Below, one piece after another: positions 407 to 26,728 of a stretch of 28,077 bases of DNA. Below the pieces are notes generated by a model, which worked only from the letters and a program-made list of their open reading frames with translations, searched no databases and was not told the DNA's origin. Every line of letters starts with the position of its first letter. Positions within the stretch are counted from its first letter, which is position 1. Origin of the DNA: Candidatus Heimdallarchaeota archaeon (GTDB lineage: Archaea > Asgardarchaeota > Heimdallarchaeia > Heimdallarchaeales > Heimdallarchaeaceae); NCBI GenBank assembly GCA_021399345.1, contig JAAFKI010000001.1:1-28077 (forward strand). The letters are read 5' to 3'. A program made the translations under genes and the position numbers.

Positions 407-1162
407 ATGAGTGAAGATAAAAAAGAAAAGAAAGAATCGGCTAAGAAAACTAAGGAAGACGTTGAAACTCCCAAAGTAGAAGAGAAAGTTGAAGCTCCTA
501 AGAAAGGGAAGAAAACTTCCACTACTAAGAAGCAAGAAAAAACCGAACCTCCTAAAGAAGATAAGAAAGCCGAACCAAAGAAACCTAAAGAGACCAAAGA
601 TAAAGAAGCCAAGGATGAAGCTAAACCCAAGAAAGAAAAAACTGAAGATTCTAAAAAGGAAAAATCTAAAACCAAAGAAGAAGCTAAACCCGAAGAAAAG
701 GCTAAATCTGAAGAGAAAGCTGAACCCGAAACTAAACCTAAACCTGAATCTGAAGCTAGATCTAGATCAAGAAGAAGAGATTCTAAATACGGTGTCGCTC
801 ATATCTTTTCCAGTTACAATGATACTATCGTTCATATCACCGACATTTCAGGTGCTGAAACATTCAGCCGTAAAAGTGGAGGAATGTTTGTTAAAGCAGA
901 CAGAAACGAATCAAGTCCATATGCAGCGATGAAAGCAGCAAACTCAGCAGCACAAGAAGCGCAAAGTAAAGGAATATACCAGCTGTATGTACGTTATAGG
1001 GCACCAGGAGGACATAAGAATCGTACTCCAGGACCAGGAACACAAGCAGCATTGAGGGCGTTGAAAAGGTCAGGGATGAGAATACTAAGACTAGAAGATG
1101 TCACACCATTACCCCACGATGGCTGTCGCCGCAAAGGTGGCCGTAGAGGCCGTAGAATGTAA
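407..1162 (+). CDS. rps11: 30S ribosomal protein S11 (uS11) with a ~125-aa K/E/P-rich N-terminal extension
   Basis: Archaeal/eukaryotic uS11 motifs: [76 protein letters not shown]-like site just upstream. Confidence 0.97.
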
Positions 1163-1163
1163 G
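1134..1163 (+). repeat. Left copy of a perfect 30-bp direct repeat (attL/target-duplication-like), overlapping the rps11 3' end
   Basis: AAGGTGGCCGTAGAGGCCGTAGAATGTAAG, identical to 3473-3502. Confidence 0.97.
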
Positions 1164-1202
1164 ATTTCTACACTTTTACTCCTTTTTTATTTCATTTTTA
1201 TT
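1164..1202 (+). terminator. T-rich archaeal-type terminator tract after rps11
   Basis: ATTTCTACACTTTTACTCCTTTTTTATTTCATTTTTATT immediately after the stop. Confidence 0.5.
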
Positions 1203-1255
1203 AAGGTATTATTGGTCTTTATATCCCATTTTATAGATAATTACATGAGACTTAA

Positions 1256-2434
1256 ATGGTGGTAAATGAGAAGACCTACTCTTGTGAAGTTTGTGGTTGT
1301 AGTTTCTCAAGAAAAGATGGTTTGTATAGACATATGCGATCTGTTCATTCTGAAATAAAAAGATACAAATGTACAGATTGTGAGCTGACTTTTGCTCGTA
1401 AAGATACTTTGGATCGTCATGTAAATGATGTTCACAAACAAATTCGAAAATATGTTTGTGAAAAATGTGGAGAAAAATTCAAACAATCTGGTGCTCTAAA
1501 AAGGCATATTCAAACAATGCATGTAAAAACTGTTTCCTATAATTGCCCACATTGTGATGTAACATTTTCTCGAACTGACACTTTAAATCGTCATATTAAT
1601 GCAGTCCATCTAAACCTTCGTCCCCATATTTGTAAGGACTGTAGTGCTACTTTCAAATTACCAGGTCATCTTAAGGAACATATACTCTCTATACATACTG
1701 ACAAGCGTCCTTATGTTTGTGAAGAGTGTGGTTTCGCTTTCAAACTACGCAGTCATCTAAATGATCATGTTAGAGTTATTCACCAAAATCATAGTCCTTA
1801 TACTTGTGAGGAGTGTGATTCCGCTTTTCCACATGCTCGTGATCTTAAGCTACATATCATAGCCATGCATACAGATGAGAAACCGTTTGTTTGTGGGGAC
1901 TGTGGTAGAGGTTTTGCTAATCCAAGCCATCTATATGGTCACAAAAAGGCTGAAGCTTGTTGGTTTACTAGGACTACTGCTTACAAATGGGAAGAACTTT
2001 GTAAAGAGATAGCTGAGGTTTTGTTGGAAGGTTTAGATTGGGAGTGGAAACCTAGGATTGATACTCCTGATATTGATGAACAGAGTTGGATTCAGCCTGA
2101 AATAGTTGTATACTACGAAAATAATACGAAAAGAATCATTGATGCTAAGAGATCTACTCAAGCGATATTCAAAGAGAAGGATTTGAAAGTGTATCCGAGA
2201 ATAGCTGAGAAGGTTGAGTTCTGGTGCCTCTATGGGAAAGCTGAGGGAATGTTTGAGGAGGAAGAGGATATAAAAGCAAAAGATAGTCAAGAGATTATTA
2301 CTGAGTTGAAGAAAAAGGAAACTGAAGAGAACCAAAGTTTTGTGGATAATCTAATCATGAAAATTCAAATGCTAAAGAAAGGATTGGAATTTAAAGGACA
2401 AAAAATTCTCACTAACTTCTCTGAAGAGCACTAA
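1256..2434 (+). CDS. Tandem C2H2 zinc-finger array (7 C2H2 + 1 C2HC) fused to a PD-(D/E)xK-like nuclease domain, with a C-terminal PIP-box-like motif
   Basis: Eight CxxC-x12-H-x4/5-H/C units in residues ~8-235, with TGEKP-like linkers TDKRPY and TDEKPF. Then WEELC (E246) ... QPEIVV (P281/E282) ... IIDAKRS (D296-x-K298). C-terminus GQKILTNF. Confidence 0.9.
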   Translation: MVVNEKTYSCEVCGCSFSRKDGLYRHMRSVHSEIKRYKCTDCELTFARKDTLDRHVNDVHKQIRKYVCEKCGEKFKQSGALKRHIQTMHVKTVSYNCPHCDVTFSRTDTLNRHINAVHLNLRPHICKDCSATFKLPGHLKEHILSIHTDKRPYVCEECGFAFKLRSHLNDHVRVIHQNHSPYTCEECDSAFPHARDLKLHIIAMHTDEKPFVCGDCGRGFANPSHLYGHKKAEACWFTRTTAYKWEELCKEIAEVLLEGLDWEWKPRIDTPDIDEQSWIQPEIVVYYENNTKRIIDAKRSTQAIFKEKDLKVYPRIAEKVEFWCLYGKAEGMFEEEEDIKAKDSQEIITELKKKETEENQSFVDNLIMKIQMLKKGLEFKGQKILTNFSEEH

Positions 2435-2524
2435 GTGAAGATTGTTTTTTAGATTCTGAGTTTCTTTATTTCTACAAGAACTGAAAACCTTTAATTTAAA
2501 AGTAATAATAACATAGATTTCAAT

Positions 2525-3445
2525 ATGTTAAACCAATCTAGATTGAAGGTTTTAAAAAAACTTCAAAGCTTTAGATATCCTTCTGTTGCTGAAAGTATGA
2601 TTAGAGAACGTATGGAAAGAATAGAATATTCCAAAAATTATGAAGACGAATCTCATGCTCATTTTTGTTACAAAAGATTACAGCAATATGCAATAAACAT
2701 ATTACGATTGAAAGAAATACGTGAGAAGTTAGAACAAGAAAGGAAACTTGTTCTACCAATTTCCCCAAATGATACAGAAGGAGAGATAATTGAACGAATA
2801 CGCGAAATTAAGAACAATGTACAAACAAAAGAATCTAAAATAGAAGCAAAAGTTTCCTTACCTAAAACAGATGTAGAGATAAAAAAACTTGTTGATGAAA
2901 TTTCTCTATATTTCTCACAAGGATATGAGATGTACAAAACATCAATTGATGCAGATATTAGTACAAGTCCAATTATAGAATATTATGCAATACTGCAAAT
3001 TATTAAAGCAATCATCTTACTTGAACTTGAAGTAGATACCCGAGAATTTCTTAGTGCTCATGGATTAGAGAGAAAGAAAATTGTAAGCAACAATACAATA
3101 TTTCAAGTGAAAGCAAAAACTCATGGGGTTTTTGCTGCCTTATTACTTCGTACAACTTCTCTTAAAATAGAAGAGGATGGAACTCTTACAAGCGAGTTAC
3201 ACAAATATTATACAAATTATTATCCAAAATTTGAGGATTTTGTTGATAAACAACTACCATATTTTAGAATTCCTGAATCTTTCATTTTTCTATGGATTTT
3301 ATCTGAAATAGCTCGATATCAACCCAAGAAATGGAGAGAAATTTGCTCAGGAGTAAAAAATAATTGGATTGATAATATAGATCTATTCAGAGAAGAAGGA
3401 GTACCAAAACTTTTCTTTGATTTAATTAATTATCACTGTAACTAG
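2525..3445 (+). CDS. YaaC-like protein (uncharacterised)
   Basis: SPIIEYYAILQIIKAIILL...AHGL and C-terminal LWILSEIARYQPKKW resemble the PxxxYY..HGL and LSxxARYxPxxW blocks of the YaaC-like family as I recall them. Confidence 0.65.
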   Translation: MLNQSRLKVLKKLQSFRYPSVAESMIRERMERIEYSKNYEDESHAHFCYKRLQQYAINILRLKEIREKLEQERKLVLPISPNDTEGEIIERIREIKNNVQTKESKIEAKVSLPKTDVEIKKLVDEISLYFSQGYEMYKTSIDADISTSPIIEYYAILQIIKAIILLELEVDTREFLSAHGLERKKIVSNNTIFQVKAKTHGVFAALLLRTTSLKIEEDGTLTSELHKYYTNYYPKFEDFVDKQLPYFRIPESFIFLWILSEIARYQPKKWREICSGVKNNWIDNIDLFREEGVPKLFFDLINYHCN

Positions 3446-3472
3446 ATTATTAATTCATACATTTTTATAATT

Positions 3473-3502
3473 AAGGTGGCCGTAGAGGCCGTAGAATGTA
3501 AG
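3473..3502 (+). repeat. Right copy of the 30-bp direct repeat (attR-like; duplicate of the rps11 3' end)
   Basis: Identical to 1134-1163; a GC-rich island in very AT-rich intergenic DNA. Confidence 0.97.
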
Positions 3503-3541
3503 TTTTGTTCTTTTCTCATTTTTATTTTACTTTTCTTTTTT
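3503..3541 (+). terminator. T-rich terminator tract after the right repeat (possibly the original rps11 terminator)
   Basis: TTTTGTTCTTTTCTCATTTTTATTTTACTTTTCTTTTTT. Confidence 0.5.
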
Positions 3542-16435: not shown

Positions 16436-17083
16436 ATGATGAATCTAAGTGATATTAAGGGCATCATAGAGATAAACGGTGAGACTTATGATCCAAAAGA
16501 GGTTCTTAGAGCTCTTCTTGAACAAGGTTTGAAAATCCATCCTTTAAATGGTTCATTACTAATTGGACGAACTTTTATTGATCCTGCCCCAAATCTTGAA
16601 TTTAGGAGCCAATCCTGTCCAATATCTACTCACTGTAAGATTTTTGAAAAACTGAACTTGTCAAAAAAGGAAATAACAGATTCTTCATTAACATCATATG
16701 ACATTGACTTAGATTCACAATCACCTAATCTAACTCATAGTCCATCTCAACCTTCCCCTAACAGATTTTATACTGATCCTGTTCAGATGGATATTGATAA
16801 TATGGATATACAAAGTCTTTTTTCAGAATCATCTATTGGAGAGACAGTTTTACCACATGATGAATTTCAGAATAGTTCGGTTCTAAGAACCAGCTTAATC
16901 GATAATTCAGAACCTGAACCTGCTGAAATGATGGGGGTGTCCCCTGTAACAAAATATGGCGAATCGATGAACATAGATGTTTCTCATATCCCGTTAGAAT
17001 ACAAGGGAAGATGTCCTTATTGCAAATCCGTTGTTAATATGAAATGGAAGTTTTGTGGAACTTGTGGCACTCATATGCAATAA
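16436..17083 (+). CDS. Hypothetical protein with a disordered S/D/P-rich middle and a C-terminal zinc ribbon
   Basis: CPYC...WKFCGTCG at the C-terminus. Confidence 0.72.
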   Translation: MMNLSDIKGIIEINGETYDPKEVLRALLEQGLKIHPLNGSLLIGRTFIDPAPNLEFRSQSCPISTHCKIFEKLNLSKKEITDSSLTSYDIDLDSQSPNLTHSPSQPSPNRFYTDPVQMDIDNMDIQSLFSESSIGETVLPHDEFQNSSVLRTSLIDNSEPEPAEMMGVSPVTKYGESMNIDVSHIPLEYKGRCPYCKSVVNMKWKFCGTCGTHMQ

Positions 17084-17102: not shown

Positions 17103-18413
17103 TTAGTCTGAACTCTCTACGTCGACACAACCTTCTGGTGTTATTGCAAATACAGCTTCTGATTCTGGTAAATATGGTGAGTCATAAATTCTAATAATTC
17201 TTTTTTCACCTTTGGATTTTCTCAAATAGAATCTAGTTGTAGCCCAATGACCTAAGATATTTCCACCAATAGCTTGAGTTGGATCACCAAAAAAAGCAGC
17301 GGGATTCGACAGAACTTGGTTTGTGATGGCAACTGCTACATTGTAGGTATCTGCTAATCTTCCTAGTATCCCTAAATGATGGTTGATTGTTTGTTGTCTC
17401 TCTGCAAGGGTTCCTCTTCCTGCATATTCTGCTCTAAAATGAGCTGTGGCTGAATCAAGAACAACAATACCATATTCATCTTTGTGATTGTAAAACAATT
17501 CAAGTAATTTTTCTGCTAGAGACATTTGATGATCAGAATTATACGCCCTTGCATAAGTTATGTCTCTAAGAACATCCTCAAAATTCTTCTCCCAACCTAA
17601 ATCATTCTGCAGTTTAACATGAATTGCTTTAATTCTGCTAGGAGAAAATGTTCCCTCAGTATCTATAAACACAGCTTTCTTTCCAACTCCTCCTAATTCT
17701 GGTGGAAGTTGGGCAGTTACACAAAGTTGATGGCATATTTGTGATTTTCCAGAACGAAAAGGGCCAAAAAATTCTATAGTTTCTCCCAATCTTACTCCAG
17801 CAACATCTAGTTCCTCAATAGTAGTTAACGCGTCTAATGCTTTGATTCCATAAGAAAAAGCTGGAGATCCCTTCTGTTTTTCCATTATCTCAAAAGCGTT
17901 AATAAAATCAATTCCTCCACGTATCTCACTAAGAGCTTGTTTGTATTTTTTTGCAGCGCTTTCTGTAATTCCATACTTATCTTCTAATTCTCTTATTGGA
18001 GTTGTTTCAAGAAGATAGATATTTAGTCCCTTCTCTCTTAGCATATCTGCAGTAGTTTTTCCTACTCCAGGTAGATCTTCTAAACCGATTTCTTCTTTGA
18101 AAAACCTATACTTTTGTACTGCAGAAATTATTTCCCCCCTAATTTTCTTAGCAATAGCTCTTTGGACACCCATTGTCTGTAATTCAATAAGCCTTGTCGT
18201 CATTAATTTCTCAATAGTTGTGATTTCATTCTCAATTAATATGTCCAGGGTTTTCTTTCCTAAACCTGGAACATCCTTAAGTTTAAGTTTAACATCTACC
18301 TTTTTCTTCTTTGAGCTCTCTTGTTCTGTTATCTCAATTAAATGTTCTTCATATTTTTCCTCAATTTCCTTTGGGTCAGGTTTGGTGGTTTCTTCCTGTA
18401 TTTCTTTGCTCAT
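17103..18413 (-). CDS. radA: DNA repair/recombination protein RadA (or close paralog) with a duplicated N-terminal HhH domain
   Basis: Walker A GPFRSGKS, QLP..LGG, IDTEGTF.P.RI, VLDS, FRAEY.GRG.LAERQQ, TNQV, IGGNILGH, DSP.LPE.E.VF. Start taken at ATG 18413 (MSKE); the track's 18470 is an alternative. Confidence 0.92.
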   Translation of the reverse strand: MSKEIQEETTKPDPKEIEEKYEEHLIEITEQESSKKKKVDVKLKLKDVPGLGKKTLDILIENEITTIEKLMTTRLIELQTMGVQRAIAKKIRGEIISAVQKYRFFKEEIGLEDLPGVGKTTADMLREKGLNIYLLETTPIRELEDKYGITESAAKKYKQALSEIRGGIDFINAFEIMEKQKGSPAFSYGIKALDALTTIEELDVAGVRLGETIEFFGPFRSGKSQICHQLCVTAQLPPELGGVGKKAVFIDTEGTFSPSRIKAIHVKLQNDLGWEKNFEDVLRDITYARAYNSDHQMSLAEKLLELFYNHKDEYGIVVLDSATAHFRAEYAGRGTLAERQQTINHHLGILGRLADTYNVAVAITNQVLSNPAAFFGDPTQAIGGNILGHWATTRFYLRKSKGEKRIIRIYDSPYLPESEAVFAITPEGCVDVESSD

Positions 18414-18574
18414 ATTATGCACCACGGCTATTAATCCGAAGAGGTTAGAGTATTTAAAGATAATACTCATTCTACACTAATTATCCCTTAAATTTAACTT
18501 CTTCTAAGGGAGACTGTACTTTGAAAGTAATGAAATGGTGAAATGAAATAGTTTTTCATGGAAAAATTGTTTTT

Positions 18575-19186: not shown

Positions 19187-19651
19187 TCAGATTTGCATTT
19201 CTTCTTGTTCAAGATTGGTTTCGTTGTTTTTACGTTTCTTTTCTTCTTCTTCCCTTATTTGTCTGTTCTTTTCTTCTTCTAAATGCTTTAACCCTTTGTC
19301 TTTCAATTTTCCAGTTCCACTACAAACTGGACAAACATCTTTTCTAGCTTCTTTTTTTGGTCCAGCATCTACATATCCTGTTCCATAACAATAAGGGCAA
19401 TTTGTCCCTATAACCTTAGCACCCGATCTTGCATAAATATATGATAATAGTAAAAATAAAGCACCTAATCCAGCAGTGATGAAACCAGCTATTTCTAGTC
19501 CTCTTGCATCAATTCCGCTCTCCTCAAAAACAGCAACAGCTTTGTCATACATATATAATCCAATAATAAGCAGAATTCCACCAAATAGAAAGATGGAATA
19601 CTGGATAACATAGATTCTTATATTCGAAACTCTTCTTTTCCCTTTCATCAT
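19187..19651 (-). CDS. Two-TM membrane protein with a cytoplasmic CxxCxGxG (DnaJ-type) zinc-binding module
   Basis: Two hydrophobic helices, CPYCYGTG and CPVCSGTG, charged tail. Confidence 0.78.
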   Translation of the reverse strand: MMKGKRRVSNIRIYVIQYSIFLFGGILLIIGLYMYDKAVAVFEESGIDARGLEIAGFITAGLGALFLLLSYIYARSGAKVIGTNCPYCYGTGYVDAGPKKEARKDVCPVCSGTGKLKDKGLKHLEEEKNRQIREEEEKKRKNNETNLEQEEMQI

Positions 19652-22109: not shown

Positions 22110-22850
22110 TTACATCAAATTAAGGGTACTTTGAAAAGCTCTAACTATATCTATATTTTCAATTACTGATGATTTTGCTACTATTTCAGGAAGTTGAAGA
22201 TTAATCCAGTTCATAGCATCTTCCATTTTTTTCCGCATACTTGGGTCTGTTATTCTAAATATATCGACAAGTGTATCAAAATTAACATTAGAGTTAGTTT
22301 CGAGTGCTTCTAACCAATTTCGTAGTGTAACAATTCTTTGAGAGGGTAGAATGAACTCAACACTGTTATTGATTCGATTTGTTACTACAACTCCTTTAAT
22401 TTTTACGGGCATAAGTGAAATAAATTGACCCCCTAATTGTGATCGAAAAAGCAAGGAAAGTATCTTTGTTTTGTCATTTATTCGCAATTTAGAGTATAAA
22501 TGTTCATAATCTACCAGAGTTGTACCAAAGAAGATTTTGGTATCTCCATGTTTAATATTCAAAACTGATTTCGATTCTAGAACTGTATTAAGATTATTTG
22601 TTTTGAATCTAATTGAAATGATTCGTGGTAAATCTTGAGTTAATTTATCTAGAACTTTGTCAATATCACCTTCGATAACTAAATCATCACCTGATCTTGA
22701 GAAACGAGGATCAAACAAGCGTTTTATTGTTACGGGTTCCTCCTCAAGAGCTGAATACAAATCATTCAAGCTCTCAATGTTGAGGGATTTTTGTGATATT
22801 CTAATCATTGTAGCTTCAGGCAGTGAAAACACCCCATTTAACCAAACCAA
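22110..22850 (-). CDS. Hypothetical protein, overlapping and probably co-transcribed with polB
   Basis: 246-aa ORF on the same strand directly after the polB stop; start uncertain. Confidence 0.65.
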   Translation of the reverse strand: MVWLNGVFSLPEATMIRISQKSLNIESLNDLYSALEEEPVTIKRLFDPRFSRSGDDLVIEGDIDKVLDKLTQDLPRIISIRFKTNNLNTVLESKSVLNIKHGDTKIFFGTTLVDYEHLYSKLRINDKTKILSLLFRSQLGGQFISLMPVKIKGVVVTNRINNSVEFILPSQRIVTLRNWLEALETNSNVNFDTLVDIFRITDPSMRKKMEDAMNWINLQLPEIVAKSSVIENIDIVRAFQSTLNLM

Positions 22851-25800
22851 GAATCAAGGGATTTTTGCCCTTCAATTGATTCTTCCCAGGATATACCTAT
22901 GGCATCCAGTAGCTGTATTAATGTAGATTTAAGTAGTTCTTTAACTTTAGGTATATCTACATCTGATTTTTCAGCTAATTGGATTGGTTTTACAGAACAT
23001 TCTTTGCTTCGGCTAATTTTATCTGAAAGTTTAATGGATTGAGCTTGTATCTTAAATGGTTTAGTTTTGATAAAACTAATCAAAGTTCCTACGGTTGGCT
23101 TTTCACCATCAGGAAATGCTAACATAAGTTGAATTGCAGCTTGTAATGGTTGAGTCCAACTATCATATTGCTCAATTTTCTTAGATAGAGTTACACGAAT
23201 TGCTAAATCTTCAAGTTCAAAATTCCTTTTAGATATCTTTTGGTTAACAGCTTGTATTATTCTTATTATCTTCTTCTTAGTTTCTTCTAATTCTTCCGGT
23301 GTTTGAACATCTGTTAAAATTTCTAAAGCTCTTTCAAATGGTCTTTTTGCTAAATTTGGAGTATTTTTTTTCCTGCCCATCAAACCCTTGACTATTGGAT
23401 ATCCTTTAGTTGTGATTCCAAAGTAGTTTTTCTTTCTATCTGAAAGTCCACAATAACGGAATACATAATCCGTTCCTAGTTCTATCTGAAAGGTTTCCAT
23501 GCTCCATTTTTCCAATTCTTCGATATTTTCAGGGGTTGGTTTGTGTATGAAAATACTATCTGTATCCCCATATAGAACTTGCAATCCTAATTTCTCTTCA
23601 CTATATTTCTTTGTTTTAGAAATTGCTTCTCGAGCAAGGGCCGCTGTTGACTCTGCCACAGGAGGACAATACAAAGCAAAATTATCTGAACCAAAAACAC
23701 CATATGAGGCGTTAAGTAGTACTTTTAGAGAAGATTGTATAACATCACTAAGTTTTCTTTCTTCTTCGCTTAACGATGGATCTTTAGCTCTGTCTTTGAA
23801 CCAGTAAACCCTGATATCCCTTATGAATCCAATTAGCATGGAACTCATACCCACATGCTTTTCACATATCCAGTGACTGGTTTCTGGTATCTTGTTCTTC
23901 TTGCACTCAACATGATTACAATTCAGAGTTTCATATGATAGATTTCTAGTTTTTATGATAGAAGGATAAAGACTATTACCTGATACAGCTGGTTTTCCAT
24001 TTCGTCTAACTATTACTGTTCCATTAGTATTGGATACACACCACACTTTTCCAGTGTGCTTCTCTTTCTCGATATAGTTATGTTGATTGTTGAAGACATT
24101 TTTTCTTGTATAACTGATGAAACACCGGTAGCTAACATGGTTTTTATATTCAATTCCATTAACAATACAGTCCCGTACTTCCTTCGAAATTGAACACCCA
24201 TAACCTAATCTTAATGTTAGCTCTTGGAAATCATTTGCAAACTCCTCATTTGTAGAACTAATAGAATAACACTTGCCATCCAACCAACTTCCATCACCTA
24301 AGAGCATTGTATCAAACATTAATTTCAAGTGTTCTTTATTGAACCCAAGCAGTCTTCTAGGGATTCTTTTATTGAACTTTTTACCCGATTGTATTAATCC
24401 TCTTTCGCTACTTAACCATTCTTTAAATTTCCTAGTAAAATCAGCGTTATTGATTTGAAAGTTTCTATGCTTTCTTCCCTGTTTTGTATATTCATTTTCT
24501 TTAAATCCTAGATTAAGCTTCTCAAGGGAATCTCTTATGTTTTGAAAATTTGCTTCTTTTGATTGATGAATTATAACACTTCTTTCACCTAGAGAACCAT
24601 CAGTTAAGAACCAACCTAGAAACGGTAAGAAATCAGCAGGAGTAAATGAATATTCATCAAATGTAATATTTTCAGATTCACCTGACCACAAACCGAAATG
24701 GGGGATTCTGAACCAACTACGTTTGCTTAATTCTTCAGCGTCCAAAATTTCTATATCGTCTTTCCAAGTTGTTTTATTTCTGTTATTGGTTCTGCTATTG
24801 AAAACCATTCTGTGGTTAGGTGTGACTAGAAGATCAATGGAGTTCTTATTTTTGAAACTGTACATCTCTCCATCAAAATCATATTCATATATTTCGTCAC
24901 AATCAAGATACTCTATTTGATTAGAGGAAGCATTTACTGTTGCTAATTTAGTTTCTTGTTTCTTCTCCTTTAACCTGCTTAGCTTAAACCACCCACTATC
25001 CGTTAGAATTTCTGTGTCTTCTGAAAAACAAGCAAAATCCAATACATGAACATCCCACCATACACCAACTTGTGGATCTATTACAATGGCTCCTTGATAC
25101 TTCTTTCCTTTAATGATGGCTTCAGTTGATGTACCTCCCTTTAATTGAAGAATATCCTCTCTCCTAGGGATTAAATAATTTCGGAGTCTGTGTTCAAAAT
25201 ACATCCAATTCTGGATCCATATACTAATACTTGCTCGAGTAAAATCATCTATTGGCATTTTTGTAATTCGAGAAAGCATTACTATTAAGTTAATTACTTG
25301 ATCATTATTGAAGCTGGTTAATTCAAAGGTTATTTCAGAATCTCTTCCATTGTATTCGATAAGTTCCTCCAAATCCAAGTCCCAAATATCCTTTTCAAGT
25401 TTAAGTTTCTCCTTGCCTAGAATTGTTTTTCCAAGTTCATCAAGGGTTATTCTATCGTAAACACCTCCAAATGCGTAAATTCGAATGGCGGGTTGTCTAA
25501 AAAATCTGTATAAATCGAGATGTATCGAGTTGGAAAGGTAAACGTCCTGAGATCTTGTTCGTATAAATGGATTCAACTCTTCATCAATTTCAAGTTTTTT
25601 CGCTCTATTATCTAAATACAAGAAATCAAAACTATCACCATTAAATGTAATAACAATAGGATATTTGCTCATTTCATCAAAAACAGCTAAAAGCAACTCT
25701 TTCTCATCATCAAACTCTTTAACCTTTATTGAAATTTTACTTTGATCTATGTGTTTTTTTTCTTCATTAAGCACAAAAACAGTAGTCTCTCTTTCTTCAT

Positions 25801-26728
25801 TTGTTAAGCCTATTGAGATTACTTTCTGTATGGCCGCATGAGGATCGGGAAATTTGTTTTTTTCACTCTCAACTTCTATATCCACTGAACACCTGCTAAT
25901 TTTAGGAATAGGAGCAAAGAATATGGGCAGATACTGCTCTACTAATTGCAAAATTTCATGAGATTGTCCTTTAAAAATATCAAGTAAGTTATCTTTAGCT
26001 TCGTTTGATATTTTAGGTTCCACTCTTTGCAGTTTGTTGTTTTTAACTTCATAGAACAATCCTGGAACTAGTCCATTGTCATAGATATAATTTAAATGAT
26101 ATCTAATGTTGGCTTCAAAAGAGGGACTGATTTTTTCCCTATAACTATTATCTCTCCCCCCAATTACTAGCGGATTTGTTGCAATTACCTTTGTTAGAGT
26201 TAATTCTTTTTCATTAAGTAGACTGTATTTCTTAATAACCTCACAACCGATAAACTCTTTTTCATTTGCAAGTTTTTTTTCTACTTCAGCTTTACTTACT
26301 GTAGTGAGCAAATATGGCAGGTGATTTGTTGTATCATACCATCTGAAAACTTTACCTTGTTCTGGGTTGAACAGTTTTACATATGCCTTCTCTTTTTTAC
26401 CATCATATTTTACATCAATAAGATAGGAAGAGGATAGATTTTCGGGAGCAAGATGAACATAACTACCTCCCTTTTCTCCAAAGGATTTCCCCTTCGAGTT
26501 ATTGGTTGTTTTTTTATTTGTGTTCAGAGAAGCTACTTTAGTTGAAGTTGATTTTTTATTGTCTTTTATGCTAATCTGTGAACTCGAATCTCCTTCTTTC
26601 TCTTTATCTGAATCTGCTTTATTTGAATCTTGAATAAAACTCATTAGACTTTTATGAGAATTATTATTATCATTTTTCACGATAGATCTACCCACTTTTC
26701 CATTTTGATGTTCATCTCTAAATTGCAC
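22838..26728 (-). CDS. polB: Family B DNA polymerase (PolB1-type) containing an intein
   Basis: Exo DIE and FNGDSFDF; Pol DFA/SLYPSII, KVLLNASYGVFG, YGDTDS, KKNY; C-terminal PIP box QKSLDSWF. The N-terminal YDGKKEKAYVKLF...YDTTNHLPY and HWIC...IRDIRV segments resemble crenarchaeal Dpo1/PolB1. Start codon uncertain. Confidence 0.95.
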   Translation of the reverse strand: MQFRDEHQNGKVGRSIVKNDNNNSHKSLMSFIQDSNKADSDKEKEGDSSSQISIKDNKKSTSTKVASLNTNKKTTNNSKGKSFGEKGGSYVHLAPENLSSSYLIDVKYDGKKEKAYVKLFNPEQGKVFRWYDTTNHLPYLLTTVSKAEVEKKLANEKEFIGCEVIKKYSLLNEKELTLTKVIATNPLVIGGRDNSYREKISPSFEANIRYHLNYIYDNGLVPGLFYEVKNNKLQRVEPKISNEAKDNLLDIFKGQSHEILQLVEQYLPIFFAPIPKISRCSVDIEVESEKNKFPDPHAAIQKVISIGLTNEERETTVFVLNEEKKHIDQSKISIKVKEFDDEKELLLAVFDEMSKYPIVITFNGDSFDFLYLDNRAKKLEIDEELNPFIRTRSQDVYLSNSIHLDLYRFFRQPAIRIYAFGGVYDRITLDELGKTILGKEKLKLEKDIWDLDLEELIEYNGRDSEITFELTSFNNDQVINLIVMLSRITKMPIDDFTRASISIWIQNWMYFEHRLRNYLIPRREDILQLKGGTSTEAIIKGKKYQGAIVIDPQVGVWWDVHVLDFACFSEDTEILTDSGWFKLSRLKEKKQETKLATVNASSNQIEYLDCDEIYEYDFDGEMYSFKNKNSIDLLVTPNHRMVFNSRTNNRNKTTWKDDIEILDAEELSKRSWFRIPHFGLWSGESENITFDEYSFTPADFLPFLGWFLTDGSLGERSVIIHQSKEANFQNIRDSLEKLNLGFKENEYTKQGRKHRNFQINNADFTRKFKEWLSSERGLIQSGKKFNKRIPRRLLGFNKEHLKLMFDTMLLGDGSWLDGKCYSISSTNEEFANDFQELTLRLGYGCSISKEVRDCIVNGIEYKNHVSYRCFISYTRKNVFNNQHNYIEKEKHTGKVWCVSNTNGTVIVRRNGKPAVSGNSLYPSIIKTRNLSYETLNCNHVECKKNKIPETSHWICEKHVGMSSMLIGFIRDIRVYWFKDRAKDPSLSEEERKLSDVIQSSLKVLLNASYGVFGSDNFALYCPPVAESTAALAREAISKTKKYSEEKLGLQVLYGDTDSIFIHKPTPENIEELEKWSMETFQIELGTDYVFRYCGLSDRKKNYFGITTKGYPIVKGLMGRKKNTPNLAKRPFERALEILTDVQTPEELEETKKKIIRIIQAVNQKISKRNFELEDLAIRVTLSKKIEQYDSWTQPLQAAIQLMLAFPDGEKPTVGTLISFIKTKPFKIQAQSIKLSDKISRSKECSVKPIQLAEKSDVDIPKVKELLKSTLIQLLDAIGISWEESIEGQKSLDSWFG
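23975..25030 (-). mobile_element. 352-aa intein with LAGLIDADG homing endonuclease in polymerase motif A
   Basis: Splits DFA|SLYP. Begins CFSEDTEIL, block B LLVTPNHRM, LAGLIDADG-like LGWFLTDGS and MLLGDGS, block F VWCVS, ends VSGN followed by Ser(+1). Confidence 0.95.

Follow-up and report, generated by a model that had tools for sequence, protein, structure and literature searches.

What does a gene do that joins a long, eukaryote-style zinc-finger array to a restriction-type nuclease domain, and that lies in an archaeal chromosome immediately behind the gene of a ribosomal protein? The question is raised by the protein P0001 of Candidatus Heimdallarchaeota archaeon (Asgardarchaeota, Heimdallarchaeaceae; assembly GCA_021399345.1), encoded in a 28,077-nt stretch of chromosomal DNA (~33% G+C; contig JAAFKI010000001.1, positions 1 to 28,077 of the forward strand), which was analysed at its full length and is called the window below. 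An earlier inspection of the letters alone (the sequence-only reading) had proposed a natural zinc-finger nuclease with a long site, acting in homing or defence. We consider it probable, if by no means certain, that P0001 is a homing-type site-specific endonuclease that acts at the 3' end of rps11 (uS11) and carries a replacement for that gene end. The coordinates of all features are collected in Table 1.

Eight fingers joined to a PD-(D/E)xK domain

The finger array agrees closely with what had been read from the letters. Pfam recognises eight stretches, the unit C-x2-C-x12-H-x3-5-H recurs eight times in tandem, and all eight recognition helices are identical to those listed in the sequence-only reading. 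Two of its details call for refinement: finger 8 is a C2HC unit (ligands C213, C216, H229 and C235, all invariant in 20 orthologs), and TGEKP-like linkers are confined to the last ones (TDKRPY, TDEKPF) and do not extend to the remainder. The full-length AlphaFold 2 (AF2) model has a predicted local distance difference test score (pLDDT) of 72, with the fingers at 80-92 and the junction (residues 232-241) below 50, where the rigidity of the coupling between finger 8 and the nuclease domain is not readable. The TATA-like box 5' of the ATG suggests that the gene has its own promoter and a leaderless mRNA.

A C-terminal domain of 160 residues starts directly after the fingers. Residues 232-392, used as a single-sequence query, gave no match in Pfam, NCBIfam, PADLOC or the PDB sequences (the PDB was searched also with a profile), and the same PDB searches revealed no sequence similarity to FokI residues ~387-579, the likeness to that enzyme being at the level of the fold only. 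An exhaustive phmmer search with the nuclease domain against 1.84 billion representative sequences yielded only 49 clusters. The AF2 model of the domain, built from an alignment of 33 diverse family domains (alignment A2), reached a pLDDT of 89.5 and a predicted template modelling score (pTM) of 0.84, and exhibits the core order alpha-beta-beta-beta-alpha-beta that the PD-(D/E)xK superfamily requires. E246 is located in alpha1 (helix 2-25 of the model), P281-E282 opens beta2 (before strand 52-55) and D296-x-K298 lies in beta3 (61-69). The best Foldseek matches in the PDB were EcoO109I, McrC, the restriction-like endonuclease (RLE) of R2, AF1548, Bax1, Card1/Can2, BspD6I, NucS and FokI. VIA-align, run on the Foldseek list and separately on all 48,161 PDB cluster representatives, reported AF1548 as the best match (Z 8.2, root mean square deviation (rmsd) 3.2, 107 residues aligned), followed by Can1 (Z 7.7), Can2 (Z 7.2-7.6), VC1899, BspD6I and McrC; PD-(D/E)xK proteins occupy nearly all leading rows in the three structure searches. 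On the strength of this model, the domain belongs to the PD-(D/E)xK fold class, as the sequence-only reading had supposed, and it is predicted to cleave DNA.

The residues on which that supposition rested, E246, P281-E282 and D296-A-K298, are present as described and invariant in the 20 orthologs, and they are retained family-wide: the 33 diverse members share the pattern W-E ... P-(E/D) ... (D/E)-x-K, with P281, K298, K308 and D309 invariant and with D or E at both position 282 and position 296. Since several members carry the classical PD, the PE of P0001, earlier a ground for doubt about activity, is ordinary family variation. The same data bear on the alternative that P0001 binds DNA as a regulator, its nuclease-like domain being catalytically dead and used to dimerise or to bind a partner. 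C2H2 arrays are typical of transcription factors, the textbook PD is replaced by PE, and the site predicted for the fingers (see below) is in the 3' end of an operon gene that is highly expressed; however, the four catalytic positions are conserved over ~49 clusters with unrelated DNA-binding arrays, several members have PD, and conservation among the orthologs is highest in the nuclease core (83% mean pairwise identity). We therefore regard a regulator with a dead domain as highly improbable.

The chain ends in a segment that is disordered in the model and resembles the box of PCNA-interacting proteins (PIP box). The tail of P0001, QKILTNF-S, lacks the second hydrophobic residue of the consensus Q-x-x-(L/I/M)-x-x-(F/Y)-(F/Y/L); a PIP-like motif is present in 11 of the 20 orthologs and in 11/28 diverse members, and the fuller form Q-x-x-L-x-x-F-L closes the chain in many diverse members. 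Modelled together with the host PCNA (L056:1078-1860, minus strand), the tail obtained an interface score (ipSAE) of 0.82, compared with 0.00 for the best of three controls, a mark that 58 of 80 solved complexes and 2 of 110 mismatched pairs also attain. Three runs had at least 93% of the contacts in common, with a partner pLDDT of at least 82, and placed Q382-F388 in the canonical interdomain pocket of PCNA. PIP-PCNA complexes have been solved in abundance, hence such a result shows likeness and is not proof of binding; we predict a PCNA-docking tail on the basis of this likeness.

The rps11 islet and its predicted target

The 3' end of rps11 is duplicated in the window. An exact direct repeat of 30 nt, comprising the last nine codons and the stop, is found in only two copies in the 3.27-Mb genome, one terminating rps11 itself and the other, an orphan, lying beyond the nuclease gene and a YaaC-like gene. 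In a close relative, G018 (locus L027, empty site at 985-1140), rps11 is followed directly by genes for a thioesterase and a metallo-beta-lactamase, the same genes that lie 3' of the orphan repeat in the window, and in a three-way alignment (A3) the filled site corresponds to the empty one with 2339 bp added. The islet thus has a precise empty site, as is expected of a homing element, and G004 likewise has no nuclease gene after rps11. Orphan rps11 ends were found in six further species, 3' of the nuclease gene or of the nuclease gene and other genes, with two orphans at one locus among related species. At locus L012 (2069-2815) of one relative, a 248-aa open reading frame (ORF) 3' of the nuclease gene ends in a second orphan rps11 end and takes from it its RGRRL-stop tail; there, successive cassettes seem to be each trailed by a gene-end remnant. 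A second islet of this kind exists in the same genome: on contig C175, a duplicated 88-nt fixX 3' end (16880-16967 and 19532-19619) flanks a membrane-protein ORF and a gene for a paralogous finger nuclease.

No integrase or transposase family was detected in the 14 other ORFs scanned (among them all large ones up to 11.9 kb; about ten ORFs further along lie outside the scan). The YaaC-like gene adjoins the nuclease gene in L007 and L024 and is nearby in L001, and inverted, distant copies occur in L020 and L022; a literature search on YaaC found nothing useful. One metagenome contig (run X1) joins position 3435 to 3510, skipping the orphan repeat, and may come from a related strain in which that repeat is missing or replaced. 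Among the sequencing runs that hold the sequence no RNA run is listed. The Logan contigs are fragmentary (at most 0.43 of the sampled words), none of them joins across the islet, and they have no bearing on expression or excision.

The duplicated tail of rps11 is more uniform in its codons than the stretch before it. Among the species compared, the major codon has a frequency of 74-79% there, versus 32-63% at the degenerate codons just upstream, and 14 of 19 species agree at all synonymous sites of the last seven codons (1139-1159), the other five being heavily recoded there. The conserved version holds the sequence GGCC-N5-GGCC (1139-1151).

To predict the target of the fingers, we scored a position weight matrix derived from a plain version of the canonical code, in which the 3', middle and 5' bases are read by positions -1, +3 and +6, respectively. 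The best site near the islet is at 1104-1127, 6 nt upstream of the repeat (genome fraction ~5e-6). Under a conservative pattern, restricted to the strongest rules and with finger 8 taken from the genus consensus, it is the only site in the genome with at most one mismatch, 20 sites having two, and with fingers 1-6 alone it is among the best 11. In 13 of 20 species, no site within 90 nt of the rps11 stop codon, on either side, scores better than the homologous one. The one 24-mer that scores highest in the whole genome for the C175 paralog lies in fixX (19600-19623) and straddles the inner boundary of the fixX duplication. Two other candidates were rejected: the exact naive 12-mer GNGGTAGNGGNG has 10 scattered matches in the genome, none near rps11, and was replaced by the scoring matrix because one Leu-codon base mismatches in this genome, while a reading of the 30-nt repeat as plus-strand GNN triplets scored ~0.6 or lower, versus 10.4-10.8 at the minus-strand site upstream.

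In the predicted register, each triplet comprises codon position 2, position 3 and position 1 of the next codon over rps11 T-P-L-P-H-D/N-G-C, so that residues -1 and +6 face bases fixed by the protein sequence, and +3 faces the wobble base at the triplet centre. Over the 20 species the contacts match: in 20/20 for R-G (fingers 1 and 4), D(+6)-C and L(-1) opposite T, in 19/19 for D(-1)-C and in 18/18 for Q(-1)-A. In fingers 5, 6 and 8, which correspond to two-fold Y-ending codons (His, Asp/Asn, Cys), His(+3) is near-constant (17-19 of 20 species), and +3 varies widely in the five fingers above four-fold codons; between the +3 residue and the wobble base in fingers 1-4 and 7 we found no clear rule of covariation. 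Where S11 is polymorphic for Asp/Asn, the +6 residue of finger 5 follows (E with C in 7 of 8 cases, D with T in 5 of 5). We regard this target, predicted from sequences, as a strong lead rather than a measurement.

If the prediction is correct, the following cycle can be envisaged. The fingers would bind ~24 bp on the antisense strand of the rps11 codons TPLPHDGC, with the +3 residues over the tolerated wobble bases. Finger 8, at the repeat-proximal end, runs nearly linker-free into the nuclease domain, which would therefore sit over the start of the duplicated segment, its active site (E246, E282, D296, K298) being placed over the last ten rps11 codons, where the duplication starts. Were the DNA cut or nicked at this point, perhaps in step with replication by way of PCNA, a copy that bears the islet would serve as the template for repair; the replacement rps11 end would be copied in together with the nuclease gene and its cargo, and the resident gene end would be displaced as an orphan. 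Such a cycle would be free-standing homing with gene-end replacement.

A number of observations weigh against P0001 being a homing endonuclease of this kind. The structural Z scores are moderate (8.2 or less), although the match list is uniform in spite of this and the catalytic motif is placed where the fold requires it, and the aromatic half of the PIP motif is missing in 9 of 20 orthologs. The finger code is approximate and its middle-base predictions often fail, finger 8 of P0001 has N instead of D at -1, and the register came from a scan and was compared in species that are related. Filled and empty alleles do not differ in the predicted site or in the 36 bp that follow it: the insertion leaves its target unaltered and does not destroy it, and classical homing immunity is left unexplained. 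I-HmuI-type enzymes act on element-bearing DNA too, and by analogy nicking enzymes that act on both alleles are a possible model for the surviving target. Finally, the occurrence and conservation of the gene suit a fixed or domesticated gene as well as a selfish one. A one-to-one ortholog is present in 20 of the 24 species genomes of the genus (none was found in 16 genomes from other families of the order), always directly 3' of rps11 on the same strand (19/19 loci) and intact in 18 of 19, and purifying selection acts on its recognition residues: pairwise identity is 70% at the specificity positions of fingers 1-4 (-1, 2, 3 and 6), versus 47.5% for the rest of those fingers. The sequence-only reading had suggested testing whether recognition residues vary while the nuclease is conserved; the nuclease is conserved indeed, and the recognition positions are more conserved than their surroundings, which indicates a target that is conserved, not diversifying, within the ortholog group.

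Because the predicted site survives in the filled allele and the gene is nearly fixed and well preserved, domestication is a serious rival, albeit one that we hold to be rather unlikely. P0001 would in that case descend from an old insertion and be a vertically inherited, PCNA-associated nuclease or nickase with a host role at rps11, for example in replication-linked processing or in the control of recombination, and the repeats would be relics or promote deletion now and then. Besides the single position and orientation, the intact copies, the conserved recognition positions and the target kept beside the gene, the divergence of the orthologs (60-85% identity) matches that of neighbouring genes, and the empty site of G018 can result from recombination between the 30-nt repeats. 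What tells against a resident host gene is that the paralogs are sporadic and occur in islets of their own, that sister genera and other families of the order yielded no such nuclease domain, that the synonymous identity of the rps11 tail in 14 of 19 species, beside upstream codons that drift, suggests ongoing conversion, and that no host function can be named.

Three observations on the ortholog locus may be added. In the copy of G011 (L020, codon 237), TGA replaces the invariant W236 and the rps11 tail has amino-acid changes; it may be a decaying gene or a sequencing error. In nine relatives, not in this genome, a nuclease-less protein of four or five fingers is encoded between rps11 and the nuclease gene, and its -1/+6 residues copy those of nuclease fingers 1-4(5) (R..R, R..R, Q..R, R..R, L.H..D); judged from this copying, the small protein may compete for or shield the site, or serve as an immunity factor. 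In sister genera (L046, L048-L050) a 270-aa ORF comes after rps11; it is probably rpoD, which has this place in the usual archaeal operon. In this genus the nuclease gene holds that place and the linkage is broken.

An Asgard family with interchangeable arrays

All source-named members of the ~49 clusters are from Asgard archaea (Heimdall-, Hermod-, Hod- and Promethearchaeota), and the nuclease domain has a patchy spread over the phylum, being found in 23 of 301 sampled Asgard genomes, 18 of these 23 belonging to this genus. It follows arrays of several unrelated kinds (C2H2 fingers, five DUF4379 treble-clef units, long helix-turn-helix (HTH) arrays or HNH_repeat units) or DUF6011. The genome under study has four paralogs of the domain, counting P0001 (Table 1); the distribution of the paralogs is sporadic. 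Diversity arises through the exchange of whole arrays among paralogs, and by its sequences this is a previously undescribed, Asgard-restricted family of predicted nucleases with interchangeable DNA-reading arrays.

The sequence-only reading had left the choice between homing and defence open. The repeat-bounded islet, the empty site, the paralog islet and the predicted sites at islet edges favour the former. As a defence nuclease, P0001 would recognise viral or plasmid DNA by its array and restrict it by its C-terminal domain, and the arrays of the paralogs would widen the range; several paralogs with different arrays do coexist in one genome, the restriction-like fold is common to Can1/Can2, Card1, McrC, SduA and Lamassu LmuA, and the YaaC-like neighbour has no assigned function. 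Yet neither the domain nor the YaaC-like neighbour has a match in PADLOC, the islet contains no methyltransferase or sensor gene, the recognition residues are conserved instead of diversifying, and the best predicted sites lie in the host's own rps11 and fixX. A role in defence accordingly appears very unlikely to us.

A wider scheme may be outlined tentatively, and we would not give it more than a minor chance of being right as a whole. The Asgard proteins could constitute a class of "array nucleases", in which a PD-(D/E)xK cutter with a PCNA tail is joined to readers of four or more kinds (C2H2, treble-clef, HTH and homing-endonuclease repeats); those with C2H2 fingers would read coding targets with the wobble base at triplet centres and drive replication-coupled conversion of islets into the 3' ends of essential genes, and in many species the small copies of the fingers would occlude the site as immunity.

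Other genes of the window deserve brief mention. The gene before rps11 (3-398), S4 to judge from its synteny with L001, has KPE-type 30-nt repeats and a helix-hairpin-helix (HhH) domain at its end. S11 itself has a Lys/Glu-rich N-terminal extension of ~120 residues (407-780), the S11 proteins of sister genera being 132-133 aa long. A RadA/Rad51 homolog of 455 aa (17103-18470, minus strand) has an N-terminal extension of ~200 residues with an HhH-like match. A family B DNA polymerase of 1296 aa (22838-26728, minus strand) shows a LAGLIDADG match at residues 811-850; from this match, it is probably intein-bearing, which would make it another homing element in the window.

Table 1. Features of the rps11 locus, of its relatives and of the paralogs (positions refer to the window unless a contig or locus is given)
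Feature	Position	Strand	Basis
rps11 (uS11), host gene with duplicated 3' end	407..1162	+	Pfam PF00411, E 3.5e-43
Predicted 24-bp site of P0001 fingers in rps11, codons T-P-L-P-H-D-G-C	1104..1127	-	Position weight matrix; finger 8 at 1125-1127
Islet of 2339 bp: replacement rps11 end, nuclease gene, YaaC-like gene	1134..3472	+	Empty site in G018
Left copy of exact 30-nt direct repeat (last nine rps11 codons and stop)	1134..1163	+	Repeat search
TATA-like box, 19-26 nt 5' of ATG	1230..1237	+	Direct reading of sequence
Zinc-finger nuclease gene (P0001)	1256..2434	+	ORF without stops, 392-aa translation
Eight C2H2 fingers, residues 10-235	1283..1960	+	Pfam PF00096 zf-C2H2, E 2.3e-42, 8 stretches
New PD-(D/E)xK-fold domain, residues 236-375 (E246, P281-E282, D296-x-K298, K308-D309)	1961..2380	+	AF2, Foldseek, VIA-align, motif conservation
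PIP-box-like C-terminal tail, G381-S389, QKILTNF	2396..2422	+	Disordered in model; motif; PCNA complex model
YaaC-like gene, second of islet	2525..3445	+	Pfam PF14175, E 1.4e-17
Right, orphan copy of rps11 3' end	3473..3502	+	Repeat search; likeness runs ~40 nt into T-rich post-stop region
C175 paralog, 385 aa, eight TGEKP-linked C2H2 fingers	C175:18370-19527		
C55 paralog, treble-clef DUF4379 form, cut by contig end	C55:94412-95286		
C64 paralog, 571 aa, seven homing-endonuclease-associated repeats	C64:2131-3846		PF18780
Small 4-/5-finger proteins	L008:370-819, L012:370-819, L025:370-819, L010:422-808, L018:422-805		
Small 4-/5-finger proteins, remaining loci	L013:443-820, L019:354-830, L022:346-792, L036:1976-2434		

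Comparison with known systems

The closest solved folds to the nuclease domain are AF1548-type, Mrr-like and Can1/Can2/Card1 domains, from which it differs in that the identity is 8-17%, that no match exists at the sequence level and that the partner domains are others. The protein of the R2 retrotransposon, also invoked by the sequence-only reading, likewise combines zinc fingers and an RLE in one chain and is aimed at a conserved gene of the translation apparatus (a target that for P0001 is predicted), and its RLE is a structural neighbour of the P0001 domain (Foldseek E 4.5e-3; VIA-align Z 5.6-5.7, rmsd 4.4-5.0). The R2 protein has N-terminal zinc fingers and Myb, whereas the fingers of P0001 abut the nuclease directly, its islet is DNA only, and P0001 has no reverse transcriptase family in the Pfam scan and no room for one in 392 aa.

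In the literature we found no zinc-finger/PD-(D/E)xK fusion in archaea, the nearest case being the TniQ-C2H2 fusions of Asgard Tn7-like elements, which guide the transposase complex (bioRxiv 10.1101/2025.07.27.667033). Common to both is an Asgard mobile element that picks its chromosomal target by a eukaryote-like tandem C2H2 array, as predicted here for P0001. The fingers of P0001 are, however, fused straight to a nuclease, P0001 has no TniQ match in Pfam, and no Tns genes occur among the 14 other ORFs scanned. Long eukaryote-style C2H2 arrays that read targets for selfish DNA, in the closest archaeal relatives of eukaryotes, would bear on the origin of poly-zinc-finger proteins.

The free-standing homing endonucleases resemble P0001 in their genetics. 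Those with gene-end replacement comprise fungal mitochondrial GIY-YIG and LAGLIDADG genes at the 3' ends of atp6 or cox, the Seg/Mob enzymes of phage T4 and the nicking I-HmuI. Shared features are the location at the 3' end of a conserved host gene, the duplicated end, the displaced orphan, the presence/absence polymorphism and a recognition that is tolerant at wobble positions (for P0001, predicted). P0001 differs in its catalytic family, in its zinc-finger reader and in being nearly fixed in one genus. Its predicted register, in which code-fixed bases are contacted and wobble bases tolerated, and its possible coupling to PCNA would, if true, extend the strategies of homing endonucleases to a catalytic domain and a reader not combined in them before.

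Engineered zinc-finger nucleases (ZFNs) were, to our knowledge, built for want of any known natural one. The analogy drawn by the sequence-only reading stands for the tandem C2H2 array, the predicted long site and the C-terminal fusion to a cleavage domain of restriction-type fold, FokI being among the structural neighbours of P0001 (Z 5.8-6.0, rmsd 3.5-3.7, 107-108 residues aligned), and it does not extend to homology with FokI in sequence. P0001 is natural, combines eight fingers and a PIP-like tail in a single chain, and is almost linker-free because its last zinc ligand, C235, sits at the start of the first helix of the nuclease domain. A natural family with such a compact, linker-less cutter would show evolution's own answer to the problem of ZFN design and may give scaffolds for genome editing.

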